Below, one piece after another: positions 82 through 11,835 of a stretch of DNA of 19,718 nt. Positions within the stretch are counted from its first letter, which is position 1. Each line of letters starts with the position of its first letter. The position numbers were made by a program, and so were the translations under genes. This DNA is from Candidatus Heimdallarchaeota archaeon. Its GTDB lineage: Archaea; Asgardarchaeota; Heimdallarchaeia; Hodarchaeales; Hodarchaeaceae. Under the pieces are notes generated by a model. The model ran no database searches, was not told the DNA's origin, and saw only the letters and a list, made by a program, of their open reading frames with translations. The stretch spans positions 1 through 19,718 of the forward strand of contig JBHLSH010000073.1 of assembly GCA_048881705.1 (NCBI GenBank), given 5' to 3'.

Positions 82-175
82 TGGGCCTGGGGGGATTTGA
101 ACCCACGATCATCCGGTTTCTCCGGTATATAAACCATATGAGCCGGACGCTTTGACCAGGCTAAGCTACAGGCCC
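82..175 (-). tRNA. tRNA with CAT anticodon, probably tRNA-Ile2 (agmatidine type), with a 19-nt intron at 37/38 (118..136)
   Basis: Acceptor GGGCCTG/CAGGCCC; anticodon stem TCCGG/CCGGA; loop CT-CAT-A | intron TGGTTTATATACCGGAGAA | A; T loop TTCAAAT. G1-C72 excludes the initiator. A GGGCC 5' end is typical of archaeal Ile tRNAs, whereas elongator Met usually starts GCC. Confidence 0.9.
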
Positions 176-1149: not shown

Positions 1150-1540
1150 TTGTATCATCTCATGATGGGAGGTGTGATACTCTCAATGGGAAAGAGCAGT
1201 TCTATTGTTAATTTTGCTCGTTAGGACAGTATAAACCAACCTGATGGACTAGAATGTCCATATCTGTCGTATAAGTAAGTCACTTTTATCGTGTGTCCTC
1301 AACTTATACTAGCATCTTGGGTGAAAAAACATCTGGAAATCATCCGATATATGAAGATAGTAGGGGGTTTATTTTCCATTGGCCTTCTCGGAAATTATCC
1401 CCATTTATGTTTCTTTTTTTCTCGTCTCGTTGTTCAAAAGTAATCCAAAACTAAAACATGGATCAAAGGAAGGAGTTGCCCCTAGCTGACAATCATTGAA
1501 AAGCACGGGATCTTACTGTTCATTAATTTTGAGTTTCCTA

Positions 1541-3517
1541 TTATTCATTTACTTTATCGGTACCATTTTCTTCCGTATCATCCACTTCTTGGTTTAGTGG
1601 GCGCATCCCCAGTGATACGAACTGCTCGACAACAGGTTGTATTTTAATGAAAGGTACGCCGTCAGTAGCAATAAGGCTGGCTACTAGCACCATATTCACC
1701 TGATCGAACTCATCACTACTGAGTCTCTTTTCCTGTAATAGAATCTGTGTGAACTGAGAAACCAAGGCGGGAAATTCAGGATCATCCAATGCTACTCTAT
1801 GTAGGATGGTTTTGATACTATTGATAAAAGATAATCCCAATTCTACAAACGTATTGGAAACCGGAATTTCAAAAAAATCGAGATTGAATAGAAGTTCGTC
1901 AACCTCTTCTTCCGTGGGATCATTGGGGGAAGTATGGATAGTGTTTTTGGCGAACCGTTCGAGGAGTACCAAGGCCCGTGCTTGAACAAACAAATTGTTA
2001 GTATTTCGAAGGATCTGCTTCACTGCGAGCCGCACATGATGATAATATTGTTCATCACATTGATCACCTAGATAGTTTAGAGCCTGGAGAATAGTGAGGA
2101 TTGCTCGACCATATAGCCGGATCTTGTTACGGCGGCCATGAAGAACATGTTGACGATAATCCTGGGAGAGTATCATGATTGAGAGCTGTAACAGTCTTTC
2201 GAATAGATGCCCAGAATGAAGCTTATCATCTCGAATTGATTCTTCTAAGGATTCTTCAAGTTCCGCAATCTCAGTCTTATCGATAGCATAGCTTTCCATC
2301 ATGGCATCAAGGGCTTCGATGTTCATTTGCTGGATACCCACGGACTCCACGGATATTTTATGTACGTACGCCGCCTTGAGAATCGGGCTCATCGCGAAAC
2401 CGCGTCGTTCCTCTTTTTTGTGGTAGATTTCTTCAATAAGCTCGGTCACTTTCGAAAGATGGTAGAAAGCAAAGTCTTCTCCTAAAAGATATTCCAATGC
2501 TAGGTTAAAGACCGCGCCGAACCATTTTAGATGAAATCCTCGTGAGTACGAAAAACTAGAAAGAAAGATGTTTTCAATATGATACAATTCCCGGGTTATT
2601 AAGGTCAACGTGGAGTAATAGTTCTCAAAGATAAAGTGCTTGAGCTCCCGTGCACTGGAATAATCCCTAGAGCTCGGATTAAGTACCATCTGGGGAAGCC
2701 ATGAGGGAATAAGTGATAATAGAAGATTAAAAGCCTTTGTGAATGATTCAAGGTCCTTTATGGTTACACGTCCTTTTTGAAACGAAGTGTCAAATTCGGG
2801 AATATCGATGGACGTACCAAAATGTAGATCTGCTTTGTAAAAATCAATCAACGCCTTCCCTAGACCACCCCCTCGTTTCATCATCTCTACATTAACATAA
2901 ATATCTTTAAGTGCATATAAGGCAAACTGGGAAATCGCTTTGAGGAAAGTAATGATTTCCTCTTTTTCGAATGATCCGGGAGGTACAATTCCTGCTAGTT
3001 GAGTGAAAAAATCTAACGAAAACACTAATGAATTACGTAAGCGTATTTCCATGCCCCGCTGTCGTTGAATGCTATGTAATATTTCGTGTAGAAGCAATCC
3101 ACGGAAACTGGAACGATTTTTTGCCTTTAGAAGACGCGAGGATTCCTCCAGTCGAACGAACACAAATTCTTTTTCTTTATAGCCGTAACTGAAACTACTT
3201 TGGAACGGTACGTGAAAAAAATCCACCAAATTTCCCATTTCTTCTGAGGGAAGACCGCTTTCAGTCTTAATGTATGAAATTACTTCTTCGATCTTTGTAA
3301 TATCTGAAAATACGATGACCATATCGGCGATTGAATCACAGAACTTCTTAATCATGGGGCTATTGAGAACTGCCATAACTGATTTTTCCATGGTTTTAAA
3401 AAAGTCCAGAAGTACAATTTTCGGAGAGCTGACTACTTCTTTCATTAGGCGTGCTTCCAGAAGATTTGCCTTTTTATGCGCTAAGCTTGGATGAAGAAAG
3501 CGGCGAGTTTCATCCAA
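1541..3517 (-). CDS. Hypothetical 658-aa soluble protein with an N-terminal zincin-like HExxH motif and a long helical C-terminal region
   Basis: Long ORF with a TTG start, co-oriented 86 bp downstream of secY. It contains GLLLHEILH (3074..3088) and a downstream ALKDIYVN helix. No clear TM segment. Confidence 0.8.
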   Translation of the reverse strand: MDETRRFLHPSLAHKKANLLEARLMKEVVSSPKIVLLDFFKTMEKSVMAVLNSPMIKKFCDSIADMVIVFSDITKIEEVISYIKTESGLPSEEMGNLVDFFHVPFQSSFSYGYKEKEFVFVRLEESSRLLKAKNRSSFRGLLLHEILHSIQRQRGMEIRLRNSLVFSLDFFTQLAGIVPPGSFEKEEIITFLKAISQFALYALKDIYVNVEMMKRGGGLGKALIDFYKADLHFGTSIDIPEFDTSFQKGRVTIKDLESFTKAFNLLLSLIPSWLPQMVLNPSSRDYSSARELKHFIFENYYSTLTLITRELYHIENIFLSSFSYSRGFHLKWFGAVFNLALEYLLGEDFAFYHLSKVTELIEEIYHKKEERRGFAMSPILKAAYVHKISVESVGIQQMNIEALDAMMESYAIDKTEIAELEESLEESIRDDKLHSGHLFERLLQLSIMILSQDYRQHVLHGRRNKIRLYGRAILTILQALNYLGDQCDEQYYHHVRLAVKQILRNTNNLFVQARALVLLERFAKNTIHTSPNDPTEEEVDELLFNLDFFEIPVSNTFVELGLSFINSIKTILHRVALDDPEFPALVSQFTQILLQEKRLSSDEFDQVNMVLVASLIATDGVPFIKIQPVVEQFVSLGMRPLNQEVDDTEENGTDKVNE

Positions 3518-3603
3518 TATGTAGTATTGATCCTACAATCCCGATCTGATGACAAAACATCTTGCTTCAAATAAAGAAGATGCTGGGCCCGTTACCATCG
3601 TAA

Positions 3604-5109
3604 TCAGAGCCCCAGGAATCCACGTAATGCGGGATTCATTTCTGCAACCCGCTCTTTACTGATAAGCTCAAAATATTGCCTCATAATTGATACAGACAAC
3701 AGGATACCCATCCCTGACCCAATAGCACCAAGGAAGTCAGCAAAAGCGGCAAGGCACCCAATAAAAATACCTCCTATCACCGTTATCGTGGGAATGTACA
3801 TTTCTAGGCGTCGTTCGATCCGTTTCTTGCTCTGCCGCCAACCTGGCATTTGCATCCCTGATTGTAGAAACTGTTGTGCCACATCACGTGGCCCCATCCC
3901 CGCAGTATCCAACCACATAACTGAGAACACTACGGACAGAAAGATCAAAACCAATGCATAGACTGCCGCCCTAATTATCGATGAAATCGGATCTGTAGGA
4001 TTAATAACCCCTAATTCCCCGACCAAGGATCTAGGTGGAGTTAAAAAATAGACCAAACCTGTTTCCGGAACATACTGCCCAGATACATTATCCGCTCTAA
4101 AAGTTCCTAGGAGAGAGGAGAGGAGGTCTGGTTGAGTTTGACCGCCGGCAGTGCTAGCATTCCAAAGGATTTGGGCAATGAAGTAGATGTCCGCAAAGAC
4201 TGCCGACGTTAGAATAACGGGGATATTAGAAACGTACAGCAACTTAATAGGATAAGTTGACCGAATCCCCTTATACTGGGTATACGCCACGGGAATCTCA
4301 ATCCGCATGGATTCAAAGTATATGACGATTATGAAGACTACAACCGTAGCAATGACCGAAAGAAGCGATAGGGAGGGGAGATTGAGAGCATTCGCAGGAT
4401 CATAACGGAAAAACAGGGCGCCGATTGCTGTTGGTATTCCTTCTGCGCTTACCCAGGCTAAGAAGGCTAATACAATTCCACGATTCGACAATACTTCTGT
4501 AGGCCCCTCTCGAACCGCCTGCACTGAAAATAATCCTGTGAAAATTTGTAAGCCTACACCACCTGCTATGAAAAGTGAGATTCCAGAACCTAAGCCCCAG
4601 CCTTTCTGCACCAGCTCATCCAACAAGATAATAATGATACCAGCAAACAGTAGTTGCCCGATGATGACCATTTGAACAGGTAAATCAAGGTTTTGCCCGT
4701 AACTTCCACCTATTAGGAATGCAACGGCTTCTATGATGGTCATAGCTACAGACATGACCTTTTGTGCACCTGTATAAAGAGAACGTTCCTCTGGATCGCC
4801 CATATTGACATTAATAATCTTACTTCCAACCAAAATCTGCATAATAAGCCCTGCAGTAACTATTGGGCCGATACCTAATTCGGCCAATGATCCTTGGGTT
4901 GAAGCGGTAATAGTTCGCATATAAGCGAATGGATCGCTCTCCCCAGGATTTGCAAGTAAAATGGGTGTAGACGCCATAACGAAATAGATAATCAAGGCTA
5001 CAAACGTCCAGGCCATTTTTTCATTAAAACGCACCTCACGAGTAGGTTTAACCACCTCAGGGGTTATGGACATAAAAGGACGGACCGCTTGCAGAAAACG
5101 AGATGTCAT
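3604..5109 (-). CDS. secY: Preprotein translocase subunit SecY/Sec61alpha
   Basis: Motifs GSLAELGIGPIVTAGLIMQIL, LDELVQKGWGLGSGISLFIAG, YPIKLLYVSNIPVIL and GSGMGILLSVSI; about 10 TM segments. SD GAGGT lies 7 nt before the ATG. Confidence 0.98.
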   Translation of the reverse strand: MTSRFLQAVRPFMSITPEVVKPTREVRFNEKMAWTFVALIIYFVMASTPILLANPGESDPFAYMRTITASTQGSLAELGIGPIVTAGLIMQILVGSKIINVNMGDPEERSLYTGAQKVMSVAMTIIEAVAFLIGGSYGQNLDLPVQMVIIGQLLFAGIIIILLDELVQKGWGLGSGISLFIAGGVGLQIFTGLFSVQAVREGPTEVLSNRGIVLAFLAWVSAEGIPTAIGALFFRYDPANALNLPSLSLLSVIATVVVFIIVIYFESMRIEIPVAYTQYKGIRSTYPIKLLYVSNIPVILTSAVFADIYFIAQILWNASTAGGQTQPDLLSSLLGTFRADNVSGQYVPETGLVYFLTPPRSLVGELGVINPTDPISSIIRAAVYALVLIFLSVVFSVMWLDTAGMGPRDVAQQFLQSGMQMPGWRQSKKRIERRLEMYIPTITVIGGIFIGCLAAFADFLGAIGSGMGILLSVSIMRQYFELISKERVAEMNPALRGFLGL

Positions 5110-5331
5110 TTGAGCTACCTCAGAGAGGAGTGAAGACCCGTAGCGATTTTCAGGTCTCCATATCCGTTGTAGGAGGGGGATTAGGGGTAGAAATTTATTT
5201 GTTTTCTTGCTATCCTCTTGTGCAAATAGTAGAAAAAGGACAAAATATTTTACCGCTGACAGAGCGGGATCGTTTTAGTCGAAATCTGGTGAATTCTGTA
5301 TCCAACAAGGATTTCAAAGGTGCTCAAGTAA

Positions 5332-7434
5332 ATGAAACAAATACGTAGGTTAGGCTACCAACTTTTTCTTGTAGGTGTCGTTTTTTCAAGCCTCTTTTTC
5401 GCATCAATTGCTGTGATTGCCTCTGGTAGGGTGATATCCCCTCAATCTTTGGATCACCAGGCAAGAATAGCGCCAAGCCCGACAAAACGAATTTCTCTGG
5501 AAGATCTGAACTTTTTTGATCCAGAAGACCTAACCAATACGAGTCACCAGGTCAATATCACCCGTACAATTGTGGCAAATCAATACGGGTATACAAGTGA
5601 GACCATCCGCATTGAAGTATCCAACAACGGGTTGAATCCGATAGATGCATTCAACCTCACTCTCCCCTTCGTGGAGTACAGCGATAATAGGTACCTCCGA
5701 GTTTTTTCGAGTAACGATACGGAGACCGAATACACGGAGTGGACCGAAATCGAAACGAATAATGATTCTGTTGTCTATGTGGTCGCTTTCCCAGAGATTG
5801 AACCTACTCACTCTTCAATCATCACGATTCAGATGGATCATCCTCATGCCGTCACCTATGACAAGGATATGCAGTTGGAAGAAGCTACGTTTCCATACTT
5901 CTTCAATCTTTCGTTCATTCCAATGATTTCCTTACCAATAACACGGTACCATGTTGATTGGTCCATAGGTAAGGATAAAACGGGAGCTGTGCTTCCGGTC
6001 TCCATAGATAATGAAACAATTACACCCGATCCATCGTCATTCACAGGAACTTTGACGAACGACCAGCAAGGAATTCGAATTGCGAACGTCACTGATTTAG
6101 CCACTATTGATAGAACCATATTGAACACAACTGAATATGGAAATTATAATCTAACTCGATTGGCGAACCTACCGTTTATTCCTGCCTATCAACCCAGATT
6201 GAAGGCCAATTTCACTGCCTATTATCTTTCATTTGATTATTCACAACAAGTCTATACTAGCATCGAATTTTCGTCTCTAACTACCAAGGTCATCGTCTCA
6301 GAATGGGGTTGGACAACCACGGTTCATGATATCGTAATCCGAAACATTGGAATCCAATCTGGATCAATATTGAAGACCGCGCTTGGCAGTAGCACGTTCC
6401 CATATATCGATTTCAATGTACCCGAGACTGCGCACAAAATTGGTTTCCGTGATAATTATGGCAACATTTCCATAGCATCCGCGTCAACAACTACCACAGG
6501 TAAAAAGATTGTCCAAATTAATCCGCGTGTTGAAATAGAAAAAGGTGAAATATATTACCTCCAAATGTCTTACCGCGAACGAACATCAGATATTGCTTCT
6601 GATCTCGGTAACGGCAGAATACAGCTTCATCTACCTCTGACGATCGCAAATAATTGGACCATAAGTCAATTCGAATTTAATTTGCTTCTACCTTTTGGAT
6701 CCACGTTCAACCTTGAAGATATGGTTAATTCGACCCAAAAACAGACTTTACGACACGTTCTTGCAAGTTCTACCGTTTCGGAAAGAGAATTTCTAGGATT
6801 GTTCAATCGTGTTGGAATTCATTTAATGTACCAGGAATTGACACCATTAAGCATTCGCTACGTTGATTTCATTGCAGGTCTTGCACCGGTGTACCCCTTC
6901 TATCAACCTCTCTCAATTTTCCTTTTCTTGCTCATACTTGGAATCGCTTACATTCTTGTTCGAAACATCTCATTTGGAATAAAACCCAGACGCGTATTAC
7001 TTGAAGAAATACCCCTAGATCTGATTAGGAATTTTGTCAAGAATTACGAAGAAAAAACAGCTGTCAGAGCTCAAATCTTGCGACTAGATAATAGACGCAA
7101 AACCAAGAAAATTTCGGCCCGCGAGTACGAAAAAACCCGGGCTCTTCTGAATAATCGGATGGAACAAGCCGATCGTTCCATTGTCAGTGTGTCACGGAAA
7201 TTGGCTGGCGAAAGTCGACGCTATCGAGTTGCTATGAGGACAATTGAAGTTGCAGAAGCCAGTCGTGAGGATATTTTGCTCAATATTGATTCGCTTGAGC
7301 GCAAAAAGACCCAGGGACGCATTGGAAAAGAAGCTTATGCGAAATTAAAACTCAGTTACGATAAGCAACTTCAAAGTGCGAACAATGAGATAGATAAAGT
7401 CTTAATTGAACTTCGAGCCTTGCTTACAGGGTGA
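5332..7434 (+). CDS. Ribophorin I (Ost1/RPN1)-like type I membrane protein, an OST accessory subunit homolog
   Basis: Architecture: signal peptide, beta-rich ectodomain, one TM, helical cytosolic tail. Collinear motifs match RPN1 as recalled: VNITRTI (EDVKRTVDL), VIVSEWG (IEVSHWG), PETAHKIGFRDNYGNIS...INPRVEI (PAAAQDVYYRDEIGNVS...IRPRFPL), YQPLSIF...LVRNISFGI (LQEPLLV...YVRLDFSI). Confidence 0.82.
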   Translation: MKQIRRLGYQLFLVGVVFSSLFFASIAVIASGRVISPQSLDHQARIAPSPTKRISLEDLNFFDPEDLTNTSHQVNITRTIVANQYGYTSETIRIEVSNNGLNPIDAFNLTLPFVEYSDNRYLRVFSSNDTETEYTEWTEIETNNDSVVYVVAFPEIEPTHSSIITIQMDHPHAVTYDKDMQLEEATFPYFFNLSFIPMISLPITRYHVDWSIGKDKTGAVLPVSIDNETITPDPSSFTGTLTNDQQGIRIANVTDLATIDRTILNTTEYGNYNLTRLANLPFIPAYQPRLKANFTAYYLSFDYSQQVYTSIEFSSLTTKVIVSEWGWTTTVHDIVIRNIGIQSGSILKTALGSSTFPYIDFNVPETAHKIGFRDNYGNISIASASTTTTGKKIVQINPRVEIEKGEIYYLQMSYRERTSDIASDLGNGRIQLHLPLTIANNWTISQFEFNLLLPFGSTFNLEDMVNSTQKQTLRHVLASSTVSEREFLGLFNRVGIHLMYQELTPLSIRYVDFIAGLAPVYPFYQPLSIFLFLLILGIAYILVRNISFGIKPRRVLLEEIPLDLIRNFVKNYEEKTAVRAQILRLDNRRKTKKISAREYEKTRALLNNRMEQADRSIVSVSRKLAGESRRYRVAMRTIEVAEASREDILLNIDSLERKKTQGRIGKEAYAKLKLSYDKQLQSANNEIDKVLIELRALLTG

Positions 7435-7439
7435 TTTGA

Positions 7440-7691
7440 ATGTTAGTTGCTCAGGAAAGCAACCTAAAAATGGTTCCAGCCATCGTAATAGAGCATCATT
7501 TGTGCACTCGCTGCAGTAAATGTATTAAGAGTTGTCCCGCAGATATTCTTGTTCGAGAAAAATCGAAAGCAAACACCTACAAATTTGATATTGAAGTAAC
7601 AGATGCGGGTCTTTGTTTCGAATGTCGAGCCTGTGAAGTTGTTTGCCCAGAGGACTGCATCCATATATTATGTATTACGCAAGCCCCGTAG
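7440..7691 (+). CDS. 2x[4Fe-4S] ferredoxin
   Basis: Two CxxCxxCxxxCP motifs: CTRCSKCIKSCP and CFECRACEVVCP. Starts 5 nt after the ribophorin stop. Confidence 0.9.
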   Translation: MLVAQESNLKMVPAIVIEHHLCTRCSKCIKSCPADILVREKSKANTYKFDIEVTDAGLCFECRACEVVCPEDCIHILCITQAP

Positions 7692-7818
7692 TGTAGCGGT
7701 CCATTATCGAGGAATTTAATCCTCGTGAGCCCATATCATGCGAGGTTTTGGTCTAGAATCGTAACTGGCGATTCTGGGAAGATTCCTCGTGACCCCAGTT
7801 CGAATCTGGGCGGGGCTA
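7682..7818 (+). tRNA. tRNA-Gln(TTG) with two introns: D-loop (about 7703..7734) and canonical 37/38 (7752..7783)
   Basis: Acceptor AGCCCCG/CGGGGCT with the A1-U72 pair typical of archaeal Gln; T arm CCCAG-TTCGAAT-CTGGG; anticodon stem CGAGG/CCTCG with TT-TTG-G. The 37/38 intron forms a full bulge-helix-bulge. The D-loop carries an extra 30-32 nt hairpin. Confidence 0.9.
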
Positions 7819-7846
7819 TCAATCTTTCAAGATTTTGTGCTTGTGT

Positions 7847-8128
7847 CTACTTGGATCCCGACAGGTTGAATGGTTTTCCCTCTTCCAAAATTGAAGAGGG
7901 AATCTGAACCCGGTATTTACGGAGAAACTCTAAATCCTCCGCCTCTTTTCGTAGATCATCAGGGAGCATAACTGGAATAGTTTTTCTAATAGGATAATAT
8001 CGTTTACATTTTCCGCAATGGATAAGGCCGGATTCCACTTCTAAATCGCTGCTTTCAAACACTAAAAGCTCTAACTCGGGGTTCTTACACATCGGACAGG
8101 CCAAGATCTCCATTAATTCTCTTTTCAT
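7847..8128 (-). CDS. trm112: Trm112-family methyltransferase activator
   Basis: MKRELMEILACPMCK...GLIHCGKCKRYYPI...IPVMLPDDLR zinc-ribbon signature, plus a short C-terminal extension. Confidence 0.93.
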   Translation of the reverse strand: MKRELMEILACPMCKNPELELLVFESSDLEVESGLIHCGKCKRYYPIRKTIPVMLPDDLRKEAEDLEFLRKYRVQIPSSILEEGKPFNLSGSK

Positions 8129-8133
8129 AATAT

Positions 8134-8204
8134 CACTTCAGACGGCTCTTCACACATTCATCGTTGTCTGGACAACTCTGCCGGGGATAACATCATCATC
8201 AGCG
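8134..8204 (-). ncRNA. Box C/D 2'-O-methylation guide sRNA with two guides to 23S rRNA domain V
   Basis: Minus strand reads: stem CGCT, G, C box ATGATGA (8199-8193), guide TGTTATCCCCGG, D' CAGA, hairpin GTTGT-CCAG-ACAAC, C'-like ACGATGA, guide ATGTGTGAAGAGCCGT, D box CTGA (8141-8138), stem AGTG. The guides complement the conserved LSU rRNA sequences CCGGGGAUAACA and CGGCUCUUC. Confidence 0.88.
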
Positions 8205-8293
8205 ACTTTTTACAGGAATGGGGATTGACGGATTCTTCGATACGAATATGCAGAAGCTGCCTTCTACTGTAATAGCGATGTATACAAGGAAGA

Positions 8294-8614
8294 TTAATAG
8301 GTCACTGGATATATTATTATTAGAACTAATAGAGCGAGGATACTTACAGAACAGATTATAAACCATTCACGATAATATTTTCTTTTCTCGGTCTGGTTAA
8401 TACTTTTTGATAGCTGAATACGAAAATTCCATGTGAACAATACGATCAGGGCTGTTAGAAAGATAAGCATGACGTGTTGAATGGTTCGATCAAGGAATCC
8501 CAAATATAAGACAATTGCTGCGGCCAATATTATGATAGAACCCAAAATTGATAAGTCTAGAAGCTTCACAGACTTAGGAAGTTCAGACCAGCGTTTGACA
8601 TCGCTAGTAGTCAC
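8294..8614 (-). CDS. Small 3-TM membrane protein, candidate DAD1/Ost2 (OST subunit) homolog
   Basis: GTG start with a perfect AGGAGG SD 8 nt upstream; three hydrophobic segments. PxxVKLLD and FRIQL occur at nearly the DAD1 spacing. The CDS is well supported; the family call is tentative. Confidence 0.6.
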   Translation of the reverse strand: MTTSDVKRWSELPKSVKLLDLSILGSIIILAAAIVLYLGFLDRTIQHVMLIFLTALIVLFTWNFRIQLSKSINQTEKRKYYREWFIICSVSILALLVLIIIYPVTY

Positions 8615-8662
8615 GTGTGTGTCCTCCTGACGCTTTTTTCTCTTAGCAAGTGCTGGAACGAA

Positions 8663-8725
8663 CTAGAGATTATAAAAACCTGTCCTGCAAAAGCTGAAAG
8701 AAAGAGTGGCTAGAGATTATTAAAT
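8663..8725. promoter_or_regulatory. Two imperfect direct repeats CTAGAGATTAT(A/T)AAA with TATA-like cores in a divergent intergenic region
   Basis: CTAGAGATTATAAAA at 8663..8677 and CTAGAGATTATTAAA at 8710..8724, between the divergent 3-TM gene and the arcE-like gene. Confidence 0.35.
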
Positions 8726-8770
8726 CCCGTCTCTTTCCTCACAAACCGCAAATTAAAGGTTTGAGATGAA

Positions 8771-10090
8771 TTGGCACACATTAAAACGGTAATCATGGGC
8801 GCCGCAGGCCGAGATTTCCATAATTTCAACACTTATTTTCGTGAAAACGACAGATATGAGGTTATCGCCTTCACAGCGACTCAAATCCCTGACATCGAAG
8901 GAAGGGTATATCCCTCAGAGCTAGCAGGGTCATTGTATCCCCGTGGGATCCCAATTTACGCCGAAGAAAAGCTTCCTGAATTGATTCGCGAGCATAATGT
9001 GGATCAGGTCATACTATCATATTCAGATATTTCTCATATCCAAGTAATGCAGATTGCTTCTCGAGTTATCGCCCTAGGAGCCGATTTTAGGATGATGGGG
9101 ACCTATCATACATGTCTTCGTGCAAACAGGCCTGTTATCGCGGTATGTGCCGTAAGAACGGGCGCCGGTAAGAGTCAAGTAAGTCGAAAATTGGGTCAAA
9201 TCCTGCGAGAATACGGGAAAAAGGTGGCTGTGGTCCGTCATCCCATGCCCTATGGTAATCTAAGTGATCAAATTTGGCAGCGTTTCGGAGATTTAGAGGA
9301 TCTAGATAAACATAACTGCACTATAGAGGAGAGAGAAGAATATTTTCCCCACATTGTTGCAGGAAATTTGGTTTTTGCAGGAGTAGATTATGCCAGGATT
9401 TTGAAAGAAGCTGAAAAAGAAGCTGATATCATTCTTTGGGATGGCGGAAACAATGATTTTCCGTTCTATTCTCCCGATTTATGGATAACCGTAACTGATC
9501 CACACCGGCTAGGTCATGAAACAACGTACTATCCTGGACATACCAATCTGTTGGCATGTGACATCGTTATTATCAATAAAGTGGATACCGCAAACATTGA
9601 GGATGTCGAAACATTAACGAGAACGATCCAATCAGAAAATCCAAGTGCCAAAATAATTAAGGCAAGAAGCCCTATAATAGTCGAAAGTCCAGATATTGTT
9701 GAAAATAAACGCGTTTTGGTCATTGAAGATGGACCAACGTTAACTCACGGAGACATGAGATTTGGTGCTGGTATTGTAGCGGCGCAAAAATATAGGGCCT
9801 CGGAAATCATTGATCCTAGACCTTTCGCCGTTCGTTCCATCAGAGAAACTTTCGCAAAGTATAAACACTTGAACCAGGTCCTGCCAGCCATGGGATATGG
9901 GGATGAACAGATTAAGGATCTTGAAGAAACTGTAAACTCTGCTGATGCTGATACGGTTATAATTGGAACTCCAATAGATCTCAGAAGGTTAATCACGATG
10001 AATAAACCTGCCACTCGTGTCACATATGCGATGGACGATGAAAGCGCCAAGGCTCTTACTGAAATCTTGAAAAATATGAATCTAATCTGA
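8771..10090 (+). CDS. Arginine synthetase (ArcE)-like / cyclic 2,3-diphosphoglycerate synthetase-family P-loop NTPase
   Basis: Motifs IMGAAGRDFHNFN, AFTATQIP, AVRTGAGKS (P-loop), RHPMPYG, CTIEEREEY, WDGGNND, EDGPTLTHG and LPAMGYG. TTG start after GAGATGA. Confidence 0.8.
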   Translation: MAHIKTVIMGAAGRDFHNFNTYFRENDRYEVIAFTATQIPDIEGRVYPSELAGSLYPRGIPIYAEEKLPELIREHNVDQVILSYSDISHIQVMQIASRVIALGADFRMMGTYHTCLRANRPVIAVCAVRTGAGKSQVSRKLGQILREYGKKVAVVRHPMPYGNLSDQIWQRFGDLEDLDKHNCTIEEREEYFPHIVAGNLVFAGVDYARILKEAEKEADIILWDGGNNDFPFYSPDLWITVTDPHRLGHETTYYPGHTNLLACDIVIINKVDTANIEDVETLTRTIQSENPSAKIIKARSPIIVESPDIVENKRVLVIEDGPTLTHGDMRFGAGIVAAQKYRASEIIDPRPFAVRSIRETFAKYKHLNQVLPAMGYGDEQIKDLEETVNSADADTVIIGTPIDLRRLITMNKPATRVTYAMDDESAKALTEILKNMNLI

Positions 10091-10166
10091 AGTTTGGGGC
10101 GATGGGAAATTGGAACCTAGCGACAGTAGTAACAGCATGTTTTAAGCCACACAAGACGCTTATTTG

Positions 10167-10562
10167 TTAATATTGCTCCTGTGTACTCACAGCAACCATG
10201 TAGAGTCCAATAATCGCGAGAAGAGCGCTTCCTGCCGCCGCTAGAATCCCTATTATTGGTGCTGTCTCATTTATGATGAACCAGGCCACCAGGATAAGAG
10301 CCGCACCCAAACCCAAACCACCGATGATGGTGGCGTTATTTCCCTCACCGTACCCGTAACTTTCCCGAGAACCGTATCCCATACCAAGTCCACCAATTAT
10401 TCCTGCAATCCAGACCAAAAATAGTTCAAAATAAGCTGGATTCCCGACTATGGTAGGATCGAGAATTGGCATTTGTAATGCTGGAATGAGTACAACCAAA
10501 AAACTCACCGCAAAGATTAAAGTACCAATAAAAGTCGGAGTTCTTACCATTTTTCTTACCAT
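10167..10562 (-). CDS. Hypothetical 4-TM, Gly-rich small membrane protein
   Basis: 131-aa ORF with four hydrophobic stretches separated by short loops; no confident family. Confidence 0.75.
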   Translation of the reverse strand: MVRKMVRTPTFIGTLIFAVSFLVVLIPALQMPILDPTIVGNPAYFELFLVWIAGIIGGLGMGYGSRESYGYGEGNNATIIGGLGLGAALILVAWFIINETAPIIGILAAAGSALLAIIGLYMVAVSTQEQY

Positions 10563-10878
10563 CTAACCCTTTAATTGTGAAAATATAGTTAGCTTGAATC
10601 TGAAAGATTACCTTTTATCATTTTTCATGATCACACAACTAAAACACGCAGATAATTAGAATGACTCTAAAAAACCAGCTTTTCTCATTTATCATCAATT
10701 TGTATTGATTTTGTTCTGGACCATAATAAATTCACAACTAGTGTTCCTCAAACAACAAAATATCGGGATTCAGTTTATTAAACCGCCTTTCATGGATCCA
10801 TCGGAAATCTTAAGGAATGGTCTTAATTAACATTGATCGGCCTTAGTTTTAGAATAATCGTTGAATGGAACCGCTAAA

Positions 10879-11835
10879 ATGAAAATATTAGTGACTGGAA
10901 TTGCAGGTTTTATTGGATCTCATTTAGCAGAGCGGTTAGGGGATTTAGGATATGAAGTCGTAGGGATAGACTGTTTTACTGATTATTATTCCCGAGAACT
11001 AAAGCAATTGAATATGGAAAAGATCAAGAGCTACGATATTCCGGTTTATAATTTCGATCTTGCAAAGGACGGTCTAAAATCAGCATTACAAGGGGTTGAC
11101 GTCATATATCACCTGGCCGCTCAACCAGGAATTTCTATCTCGACCCCGTTTGAAGAATATGTAAAGAATAATATCATTGCCACCAAAAATCTGGTAGATT
11201 CGTGCAGAAACCTTTCTTCACTAAATTGTTTTGTCAATATTTCAACTTCATCGGTATATGGAGCGCATGCAACAGATCCTGAGGATGCAGCACCTAAACC
11301 TACTTCATTTTATGGTGTTACAAAGTTGTGTGCAGAGCAATTAGTTCTTGCTTACCATCGCGAATATGGATTCCCTGCATGTTCCCTGCGTATTTTTTCT
11401 GTGTATGGGCCACGTGAAAGGCCTGAAAAGCTGTTTCCTAAGATCATCTTGAGTATATTGAACAACACCTCATTTCCTCTCTATGAAGGGAGTGAAACCC
11501 ATTCTCGAAGCTATACTTACGTCGAGGATATAATACATGGATTGATCTCCGTATTAAACCACAAGGACAAAGCGATCGGGGAAATTTTCAATCTGGGCTC
11601 GCCAGTTGAAGTTACTACTGGAGAAACAATAAAGATTGTTGAACAAATCATGGGGAAGGAAGCACAAAAAGATGTCCTTCCGAAAAGGCCTGGGGATCAG
11701 ATTCGAACTTGGGCAAATATCAATAAAGCACGTTCAATTCTCGGTTTTGAACCACAAACTCGAATTGAAGACGGATTAAAACTAGAAATAGATTGGTTTC
11801 GAGAAATCTATGAAAAAAACATCCTATATGAATAA
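10879..11835 (+). CDS. NAD-dependent nucleotide-sugar epimerase/dehydratase (extended SDR, UDP-glucuronate 4-epimerase/WcaG-like)
   Basis: MKILVTGIAGFIG (GxxGxxG), HLAAQPG, STSSVYG, catalytic YGVTK (YxxxK), LRIFSVYGP. The ATG at 10879 is preferred over the TTG at 10861. Confidence 0.93.
   Translation: MKILVTGIAGFIGSHLAERLGDLGYEVVGIDCFTDYYSRELKQLNMEKIKSYDIPVYNFDLAKDGLKSALQGVDVIYHLAAQPGISISTPFEEYVKNNIIATKNLVDSCRNLSSLNCFVNISTSSVYGAHATDPEDAAPKPTSFYGVTKLCAEQLVLAYHREYGFPACSLRIFSVYGPRERPEKLFPKIILSILNNTSFPLYEGSETHSRSYTYVEDIIHGLISVLNHKDKAIGEIFNLGSPVEVTTGETIKIVEQIMGKEAQKDVLPKRPGDQIRTWANINKARSILGFEPQTRIEDGLKLEIDWFREIYEKNILYE

Follow-up and report, generated by a model that had tools for sequence, protein, structure and literature searches.

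A short open reading frame near the gene for a ribophorin I homologue, in the genome of a Candidatus Heimdallarchaeota archaeon, raises the question of whether its membrane-spanning product is related to Ost2/DAD1. Ost2/DAD1 is the small subunit with three membrane helices in subcomplex III of the eukaryotic oligosaccharyltransferase (OST), and for a long time this subcomplex, Ost2/DAD1 included, was taken for an innovation of eukaryotes. A DAD1/Ost2-like identity had been proposed in an earlier note on the window (the whole stretch of 19,718 nucleotides that was analysed, to which all positions refer unless a locus or contig is named). The protein is a conserved, single-copy, three-helix membrane protein of Heimdallarchaeia, and its sequence profile and predicted fold come closest to Ost2/DAD1. 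We put the probability that the product is an archaeal protein distantly homologous to Ost2/DAD1 at roughly 78%. The grounds for this reading and the explanations that compete with it are set out below.

The gene and its conservation in the class

The open reading frame is a real gene and correctly delimited (Table 1). Its GTG start is supported by the Shine-Dalgarno sequence located 7 nt upstream and by homologues that have their start codon at the same position in the alignment. The divergent spacer between this gene and the one at 8771 is 156 bp long and houses the putative TATA-like element. The product had been described beforehand as a protein of 106 residues with three transmembrane (TM) segments, and this description was borne out both by the translation and by an AlphaFold2 model with three long helices.

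Table 1. Positions of the features discussed in the text; strands are given relative to the window.
Feature	Position	Strand	Size	Evidence and remarks
tRNA	82..175	-	94 nt	Rfam 57.5 bits; not reported by ARAGORN
SecY/Sec61 alpha	3604..5109	-	501 aa	PF00344 E 8.8e-65 and Plug_translocon; divergent from ribophorin I
Ribophorin I/Ost1 homologue	5332..7434	+	700 aa	PF04597 E 3.6e-12, over cut-off
Small 2x[4Fe-4S] ferredoxin	7440..7691	+	83 aa	Fer4 families; 3' of ribophorin I
Trm112-like zinc-ribbon protein	7847..8128	-	93 aa	PF03966 E 1e-10; immediately downstream of the Ost2-like gene
Ost2/DAD1-like gene	8294..8614	-	106 aa	GTG start, TAA stop; open reading frame and translation, conservation, models, profile match, Foldseek
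Shine-Dalgarno sequence GGAGGA	8622..8627	-		Read from the sequence (plus strand tcctcc); 7 nt upstream of GTG
Putative AT-rich TATA-like element TTTTTATAA (minus strand)	8670..8678	-		Read by eye; about 60 nt upstream of the start
P-loop protein (P439)	8771..10090	+	439 aa	Weak cobW/CbiA matches; divergent from the Ost2-like gene
Glycine-rich membrane protein	10167..10562	-	131 aa	No Pfam family

A word-indexed search matched 29 proteins at E ≤ 0.01, all of them 86-137 aa in length. They are unnamed or listed as "hypothetical protein" in Heimdallarchaeota/Hodarchaeales metagenome-assembled genomes (MAGs), and a precomputed Pfam domain was present in 0 of the 29. When 1.84 billion representatives were searched exhaustively with a profile, 27 clusters emerged at E ≤ 0.001 (97-133 aa). 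The phylogenetic distribution, which the earlier note had named as a check, was determined by six-frame searches: the family occurred once per genome in 73 of the 83 species genomes of the class, and it was present in all 14 high-quality class genomes and in all 18 genera. The genome from which the window derives belongs to the same GTDB genus as the closed 4.94-Mb genome CP070695.1 (NCBI label Candidatus Heimdallarchaeota archaeon).

Positions invariant in the 28 close homologues comprised K14, V16, K17-L18-L19-D20, Y37, IFL 51-53, T61, W62, F64, R65, W84, Y102 and P103, and R65 was conserved in at least 90% of the 49 class-wide members. The features that had been singled out by eye, namely KLLD, RIQ (through its arginine, R65) and a tyrosine at the end of TM1 (Y37), are represented among the conserved positions and are no chance matches. 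Two labels in the public records (P0004/P0042) stood out: a Thorarchaeota assignment for the nearest homologue in public records, at 84% identity, and an Odinarchaeota assignment for a class-type member adjoining ribophorin I. Both labels look inconsistent with a placement in the Heimdall group, and the respective MAGs may be mis-binned or mislabelled.

Genomic setting and putative OST partners

The gene for ribophorin I, reported previously at a distance of 860 bp, ends 859 bp from the Ost2-like reading frame, and its identity was confirmed by the Pfam match (Table 1). Within the genus, the usual gene order, spanning about 10 kb, is OST48-like, two further genes, P439, Ost2-like, Trm112, ferredoxin, ribophorin I and SecY. 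This cluster was found in nearly all genus genomes (loci L019 (CP070695.1) 1379-11236, L026-L031 and L072-L091). In the genome of the window, the OST48-like gene is carried on another contig (C86) than the Ost2-like gene, and in its closest relative (G061) the two genes are 44 kb apart. The most widely conserved neighbour was P439, which is retained next to the Ost2-like gene in loci L019, L024 and L025 as well as the genus loci, and more widely than ribophorin I. The Trm112-like gene adjoins the Ost2-like gene in the same set of loci, and the ferredoxin gene occupies the same position in L019 and L024. A homologue of the 131-aa glycine-rich membrane protein was detected in the L019 cluster (phmmer E 1.7e-33). 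At the far end of the window, the length of the 94-nt tRNA, which lies beside a tRNA-Asn at 1-76, suggests that it contains an intron. Neither ARAGORN nor Rfam, run at gathering thresholds, recorded an RNA gene at 7682-7818 or at 8134-8204, the latter located just downstream of the Ost2-like gene.

In locus L024, a relative with 20-25% identity is flanked by the ribophorin I-ferredoxin pair on one side and by the Trm112-P439 pair on the other. No synteny of the Ost2-like gene with ribophorin I or STT3 was found beyond the genus and L024, and two closed genomes from a different family carry it 1 Mb from ribophorin I. Since linkage is confined to one genus and one other lineage, the argument from gene neighbourhood is real but narrow. 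On a different Heimdall-group contig (locus L023, 7172-8348), the Ost2-like gene directly follows a run of genes for the ribosomal proteins L30, L15 and L40e. In archaea, secY is the usual occupant of this position.

Genes related to OST subunits were also identified elsewhere in the genome. Two full-length STT3/AglB paralogues of 721 and 723 aa are encoded (L016 and L017; C90:7502-8686 and C8:10301-11482), together with a 427-aa OST48/Wbp1-like protein that was matched by PF03345 at E 5.2e-6, under the cut-off. With a single-protein query, the OST48-like gene was found in 39 of the 83 class genomes. The profile for ribophorin II/Swp1 (PF05817) gave nothing in the window's own genome, but it was silent in the controls, too, so that this result is uninformative.

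Sequence and fold similarity to Ost2/DAD1

A comparison with the Pfam DAD family (PF02109; gathering threshold 27 bits) by HMMER had been put forward as a check of the proposed identity, and by this route the link was not obtained: there was no match on the 106-aa protein at E ≤ 1, none in its genome at E ≤ 10, and a six-frame search of the 83 class genomes produced nothing that exceeded 27 bits. Scanned directly against Pfam and NCBIfam, the protein gave only noise-level matches to membrane proteins. Most of the weak six-frame PF02109 matches in the class sit in unrelated long reading frames. Four of them, in two genera, coincide exactly with the Ost2-like gene, which is far above the expectation for one gene among thousands, even though three of these matches belong to a single genus and do not count as independent. 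DAD was also the Pfam family matched by most of the class-wide members (6/49; best E 7.9e-4, under the cut-off, in register). In P0034, for example, residues 13-100 were aligned to positions 15-107 of the 109-position profile at a sub-threshold E of 0.006. Unrelated DUFs reached similar E-values in such single-sequence searches, so the single-member DAD matches are, taken alone, at noise level.

The lack of any Pfam DAD match over threshold and the comparable strength of the DUF matches both fit an alternative explanation, according to which the gene encodes a lineage-specific small Asgard membrane protein that is unrelated to Ost2/DAD1 and has another envelope or translocon function. The resemblance would then be convergent, as any hydrophobic bundle of about 105 residues with three helices running up, down and up could look alike. 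We regard this explanation as unlikely, in view of the profile searches described next and, further below, of the structural comparisons.

Five variants of the family profile were run against 177,635 distinct PDB sequences. Yeast Ost2 was the top match for three of them: A2, built from 28 diverse members (E 0.013, 18.9 bits; profile 11-95 to Ost2 39-126); A4, in which A2 is extended by 21 sequences drawn from genomes of further class families, giving 49 class-wide members (E 1.6e-4, 24.7 bits; the same spans); and A6, a mixed set of 76 sequences (E 0.063). It was not found among the PDB sequences with A1, made from the 28 close homologues, or with A3, which is mostly non-Heimdall. Human DAD1 was also matched by A4 over nearly its whole length (E 0.16; profile 10-94 to DAD1 18-108). 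The best E-value stays below 1e-3 after allowing for the five profile variants, and the score climbs with added class diversity, as true remote homology predicts. Among the matches of a word-indexed search with A2 at E ≤ 10, none carried a precomputed Pfam domain and none was a eukaryotic DAD1.

In the alignments of A4 and A2 to yeast Ost2, KLLD falls on KLID, the Asn conserved behind TM1 on that of FPFN, R65 on the arginine within LRLQL (F-R-I-Q-L against L-R-L-Q-L) and Y-R-E-W on F-A-E-F. This HMMER alignment has the register that had been drawn by eye in the earlier note. The distance from K17 to R65 amounts to 48 residues, compared with 50 residues between K45 and R95 of yeast Ost2, and HMMER accommodates the difference by a 2-residue insertion in TM2 of the yeast protein. 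The FPFN loop, a hallmark, is reduced to Q-N in the family and reads Q-H (H47) in the 106-aa protein. The list of eukaryotic motifs used for this comparison (K-L-[IL]-D, FPFN, L-R-[IL]-Q and F-A-[DE]-F) rests in part on a single yeast sequence. That Ost2 is the single best PDB match for the majority of the profile variants, and that a full-length alignment pairs the most conserved residues of the family with conserved DAD motifs, argues against an unrelated protein and for homology with Ost2/DAD1.

Two independent structural models of the 106-aa protein were generated. Model 1, based on 28 sequences, had a pLDDT of 75, whereas model 2 (AlphaFold2, 76 sequences) had a mean pLDDT of 88.6 and a pTM of 0.73. 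The AlphaFold2 helices comprise a short N-terminal helix (residues 3-10), which is amphipathic, and three long ones (14-39, 45-70 and 74-101). In a Foldseek search of 350,542 PDB chains, model 1 retrieved yeast Ost2 at ranks 1, 2, 4 and 5 (TM 0.65-0.67). With model 2, six of the top seven matches were Ost2/DAD1 chains (TM 0.60-0.73, probability 0.96-0.99), the best of them being 8agc_D (TM 0.73/0.71, rmsd 2.9 over 98 columns, probability 0.99). With E-values of 0.3-1.5 (0.3-0.8 for the Ost2/DAD1 chains with model 2), these Foldseek matches do not reach significance for a helical protein of this small size. The Z values from VIA-align were 10.0 for 6s7o_D (rmsd 3.4, 100 residues aligned) and 9.8 for 6c26_2 (rmsd 3.0, 98 aligned), and a further value was 8.7. 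A Z of about 10 ties with generic BAR-type long-helix matches (rmsd > 6), and for helical bundles values below about 13 can reflect a common arrangement. The language-model search of the ESM Atlas returned low scores, unrelated DUFs and no DAD cluster. The corresponding fold search contained no DAD cluster either and was headed by a 92-aa cluster of hypothetical Thorarchaeota proteins (TM 0.74/0.84, rmsd 1.9 over 90 residues).

The superposition on Ost2 from OST structures that had been suggested earlier therefore has a mixed outcome: Ost2/DAD1 chains lead the Foldseek lists, but the E-values and the tie of the VIA scores with generic helical matches limit what can be drawn from them. The predicted fold is supportive by its ranking, not decisive. 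The VIA scores and the uninformative ESM Atlas searches would fit an unrelated three-helix protein; the placement of Ost2/DAD1 chains at the top of the Foldseek list for both models speaks for Ost2/DAD1 instead. Taken over sequence and structure, the DAD1/Ost2-like identity proposed at the outset stood with respect to the profile and Foldseek rankings and failed with respect to the PF02109 threshold.

The distribution of charges was used to predict the membrane topology. The N-terminal segment carries +4/-3 charges, and the loop between TM2 and TM3 (R65...R82) carries +6/-2, a net charge of +4. According to the positive-inside rule, the N-terminus and the TM2-TM3 loop would be cytoplasmic, whereas the loop joining TM1 to TM2 would lie outside, together with the C-terminal YPVTY. 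This predicted topology is that of Ost2, with the outside being equivalent to the ER lumen.

Co-folding of the Ost2-like protein with the OST48-like protein gave a score of 0.48 (runs 0.51, 0.48 and 0.44), with a partner pLDDT of at least 74 and agreement of the runs in at least 85% of contacts; all three controls scored 0.00. In the calibration of this method, 58 of 80 solved complexes attained the mark, as did 2 of 110 mismatches, and scores of 0.60 or below comprised 7 of the 80 solved complexes plus both mismatches that passed. As a like complex has already been solved, the pass may reflect likeness only. The prediction thus lends weak support to a contact between the two proteins and, to the same modest degree, weighs against an unrelated protein. 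In mammals, DAD1 and OST48 reportedly touch each other, as described in the cross-linking and two-hybrid literature of 1997.

Relatives in other Asgard archaea, possible role and comparison with known systems

A search with the class profile revealed one open reading frame of 92-128 aa in 279 of 400 Asgard genomes, with representatives in many families outside the class (for example L033:4983-5306, L035:4992-5270, L043:4890-5243 and L047:5001-5279). These families may include Loki- and Thor-type lineages. The outside relatives share the length class and the three-helix fold of the Heimdallarchaeial proteins, as well as a Trp that is invariant (W84) and a [KR]-[IL]-[LM]-[DN] motif before TM1; they differ in that R65 and YP are not conserved. 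A profile made solely from 19 outside members recovered the reading frame in the window, alone among the 13,284 reading frames of its genome, at E 9e-12. Outside members by themselves gave no Ost2 signal when the mostly non-Heimdall profile A3 was compared with the PDB sequences, and they were not located near STT3 or ribophorin I. Both of these negative results are also in line with a small Asgard membrane protein unrelated to Ost2. An identity of the wider family with Ost5/TMEM258 was rejected, as the Pfam scan contained no Ost5 match and the proteins have three helices instead of two.

It is conceivable, at somewhat less than even odds, that the Ost2-like family extends beyond Heimdallarchaeia, with the outside relatives being true orthologues and the Ost2 lineage correspondingly older. 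In that case, the lineage would predate Heimdallarchaeia and would have existed in Asgard archaea without Wbp1 and Swp1. Ost2 would then be an older partner of AglB or the translocon, around which subcomplex III was built later.

The wider family also bears on a second alternative, in which the protein is an Ost2 homologue that acts outside OST, either no longer or never part of it, and serves the SecY translocon or ribophorin I as a small partner in a general way. Such a role would fit the occurrence of the family in classes reported without Wbp1 and Swp1, given that the subcomplex-III partners are reported only in Heimdallarchaeia (PMC10307638), and it would fit the proximity of the gene to SecY in the window and its position at the usual secY site in locus L023. 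We nevertheless consider it highly improbable: binding to SecY is hypothetical, the OST48-like co-fold points, if weakly, to an OST subunit as the partner, and the genus-level cluster that contains SecY and ribophorin I contains the OST48-like gene as well.

For a homologue of Ost2/DAD1 that is part of OST, as favoured here, a function can be proposed by analogy with Ost2. The protein would most likely be a non-catalytic membrane scaffold that may pack between the catalytic AglB/STT3 subunit and the single TM helix of the OST48/Wbp1-like subunit. Packing of this kind would be expected to stabilise a multi-subunit, eukaryote-like OST working beside the Sec61/SecY channel and ribophorin I.

The suggestion that the protein could be a new eukaryotic signature protein is not supported by the literature. 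Asgard homologues of Ost2/Dad1, Ost4, Ost5, Swp1 and Wbp1 have been identified, with Ost2, Wbp1 and Swp1 reported to be restricted to Heimdallarchaeia (Eme et al. 2023, Nature 618:992, PMC10307638), and DAD/OST2 homologues have been reported in Gerdarchaeota (Cai et al. 2019, bioRxiv 10.1101/858530). Ost2 was not mentioned in PMC11417166 or in a 2026 preprint on structural clustering. Ost2/DAD homologues in Heimdallarchaeia are therefore already known, and the present analysis is a confirmation, not a discovery. The same holds for the implication that the presence of Ost2 in the archaea closest to eukaryotes supports a multi-subunit, translocon-linked N-glycosylation machine predating the ER, which has been published as well (Eme et al. 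2023). What is added here is a reproducible link, with its limits stated, between an unannotated family of "hypothetical proteins" and Ost2; a genus-wide cluster that joins the OST48-like, Ost2-like, ribophorin I and SecY genes; and a hint of a far broader occurrence of the family among Asgard archaea than has been described so far.

Several features set the archaeal protein apart from eukaryotic Ost2/DAD1 (PF02109; 6c26_2, 6ezn_B, 8agc_D and 6s7o_D). The identity is about 14% and the similarity falls under the Pfam threshold, the FPFN loop is not kept in the archaeal family, TM2 is shorter than that of yeast Ost2 by 2 residues, W84 and the C-terminal YPVTY are specific to the archaeal family, and the protein belongs to a prokaryotic cell membrane, not to the ER. 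On the other side, the length is similar (106 aa versus 113-130 aa), and a short N-terminal helix is followed by three TM helices in both cases. In both, K-L-[LI]-D stands ahead of TM1, a conserved Asn follows that helix, TM2 ends with a conserved Arg, and TM3 is preceded by an aromatic-x-E-aromatic motif. Ost2/DAD1 is also the best PDB match of the archaeal family by sequence and by Foldseek. As in organisms with the eukaryotic OST, genes for STT3, ribophorin I and an OST48-like protein are present in the same genome. The Ost2 homologues described by Eme et al. and Cai et al., with which the comparison was made at the level of claim and distribution, are likewise Heimdallarchaeial Ost2 proteins recognised by distant-homology methods. 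The distribution reported by Eme et al. (2023) matches that of the present family, which occurs in every genus of the class (18/18) and, in the window's own genome, together with an OST48/Wbp1-like gene.
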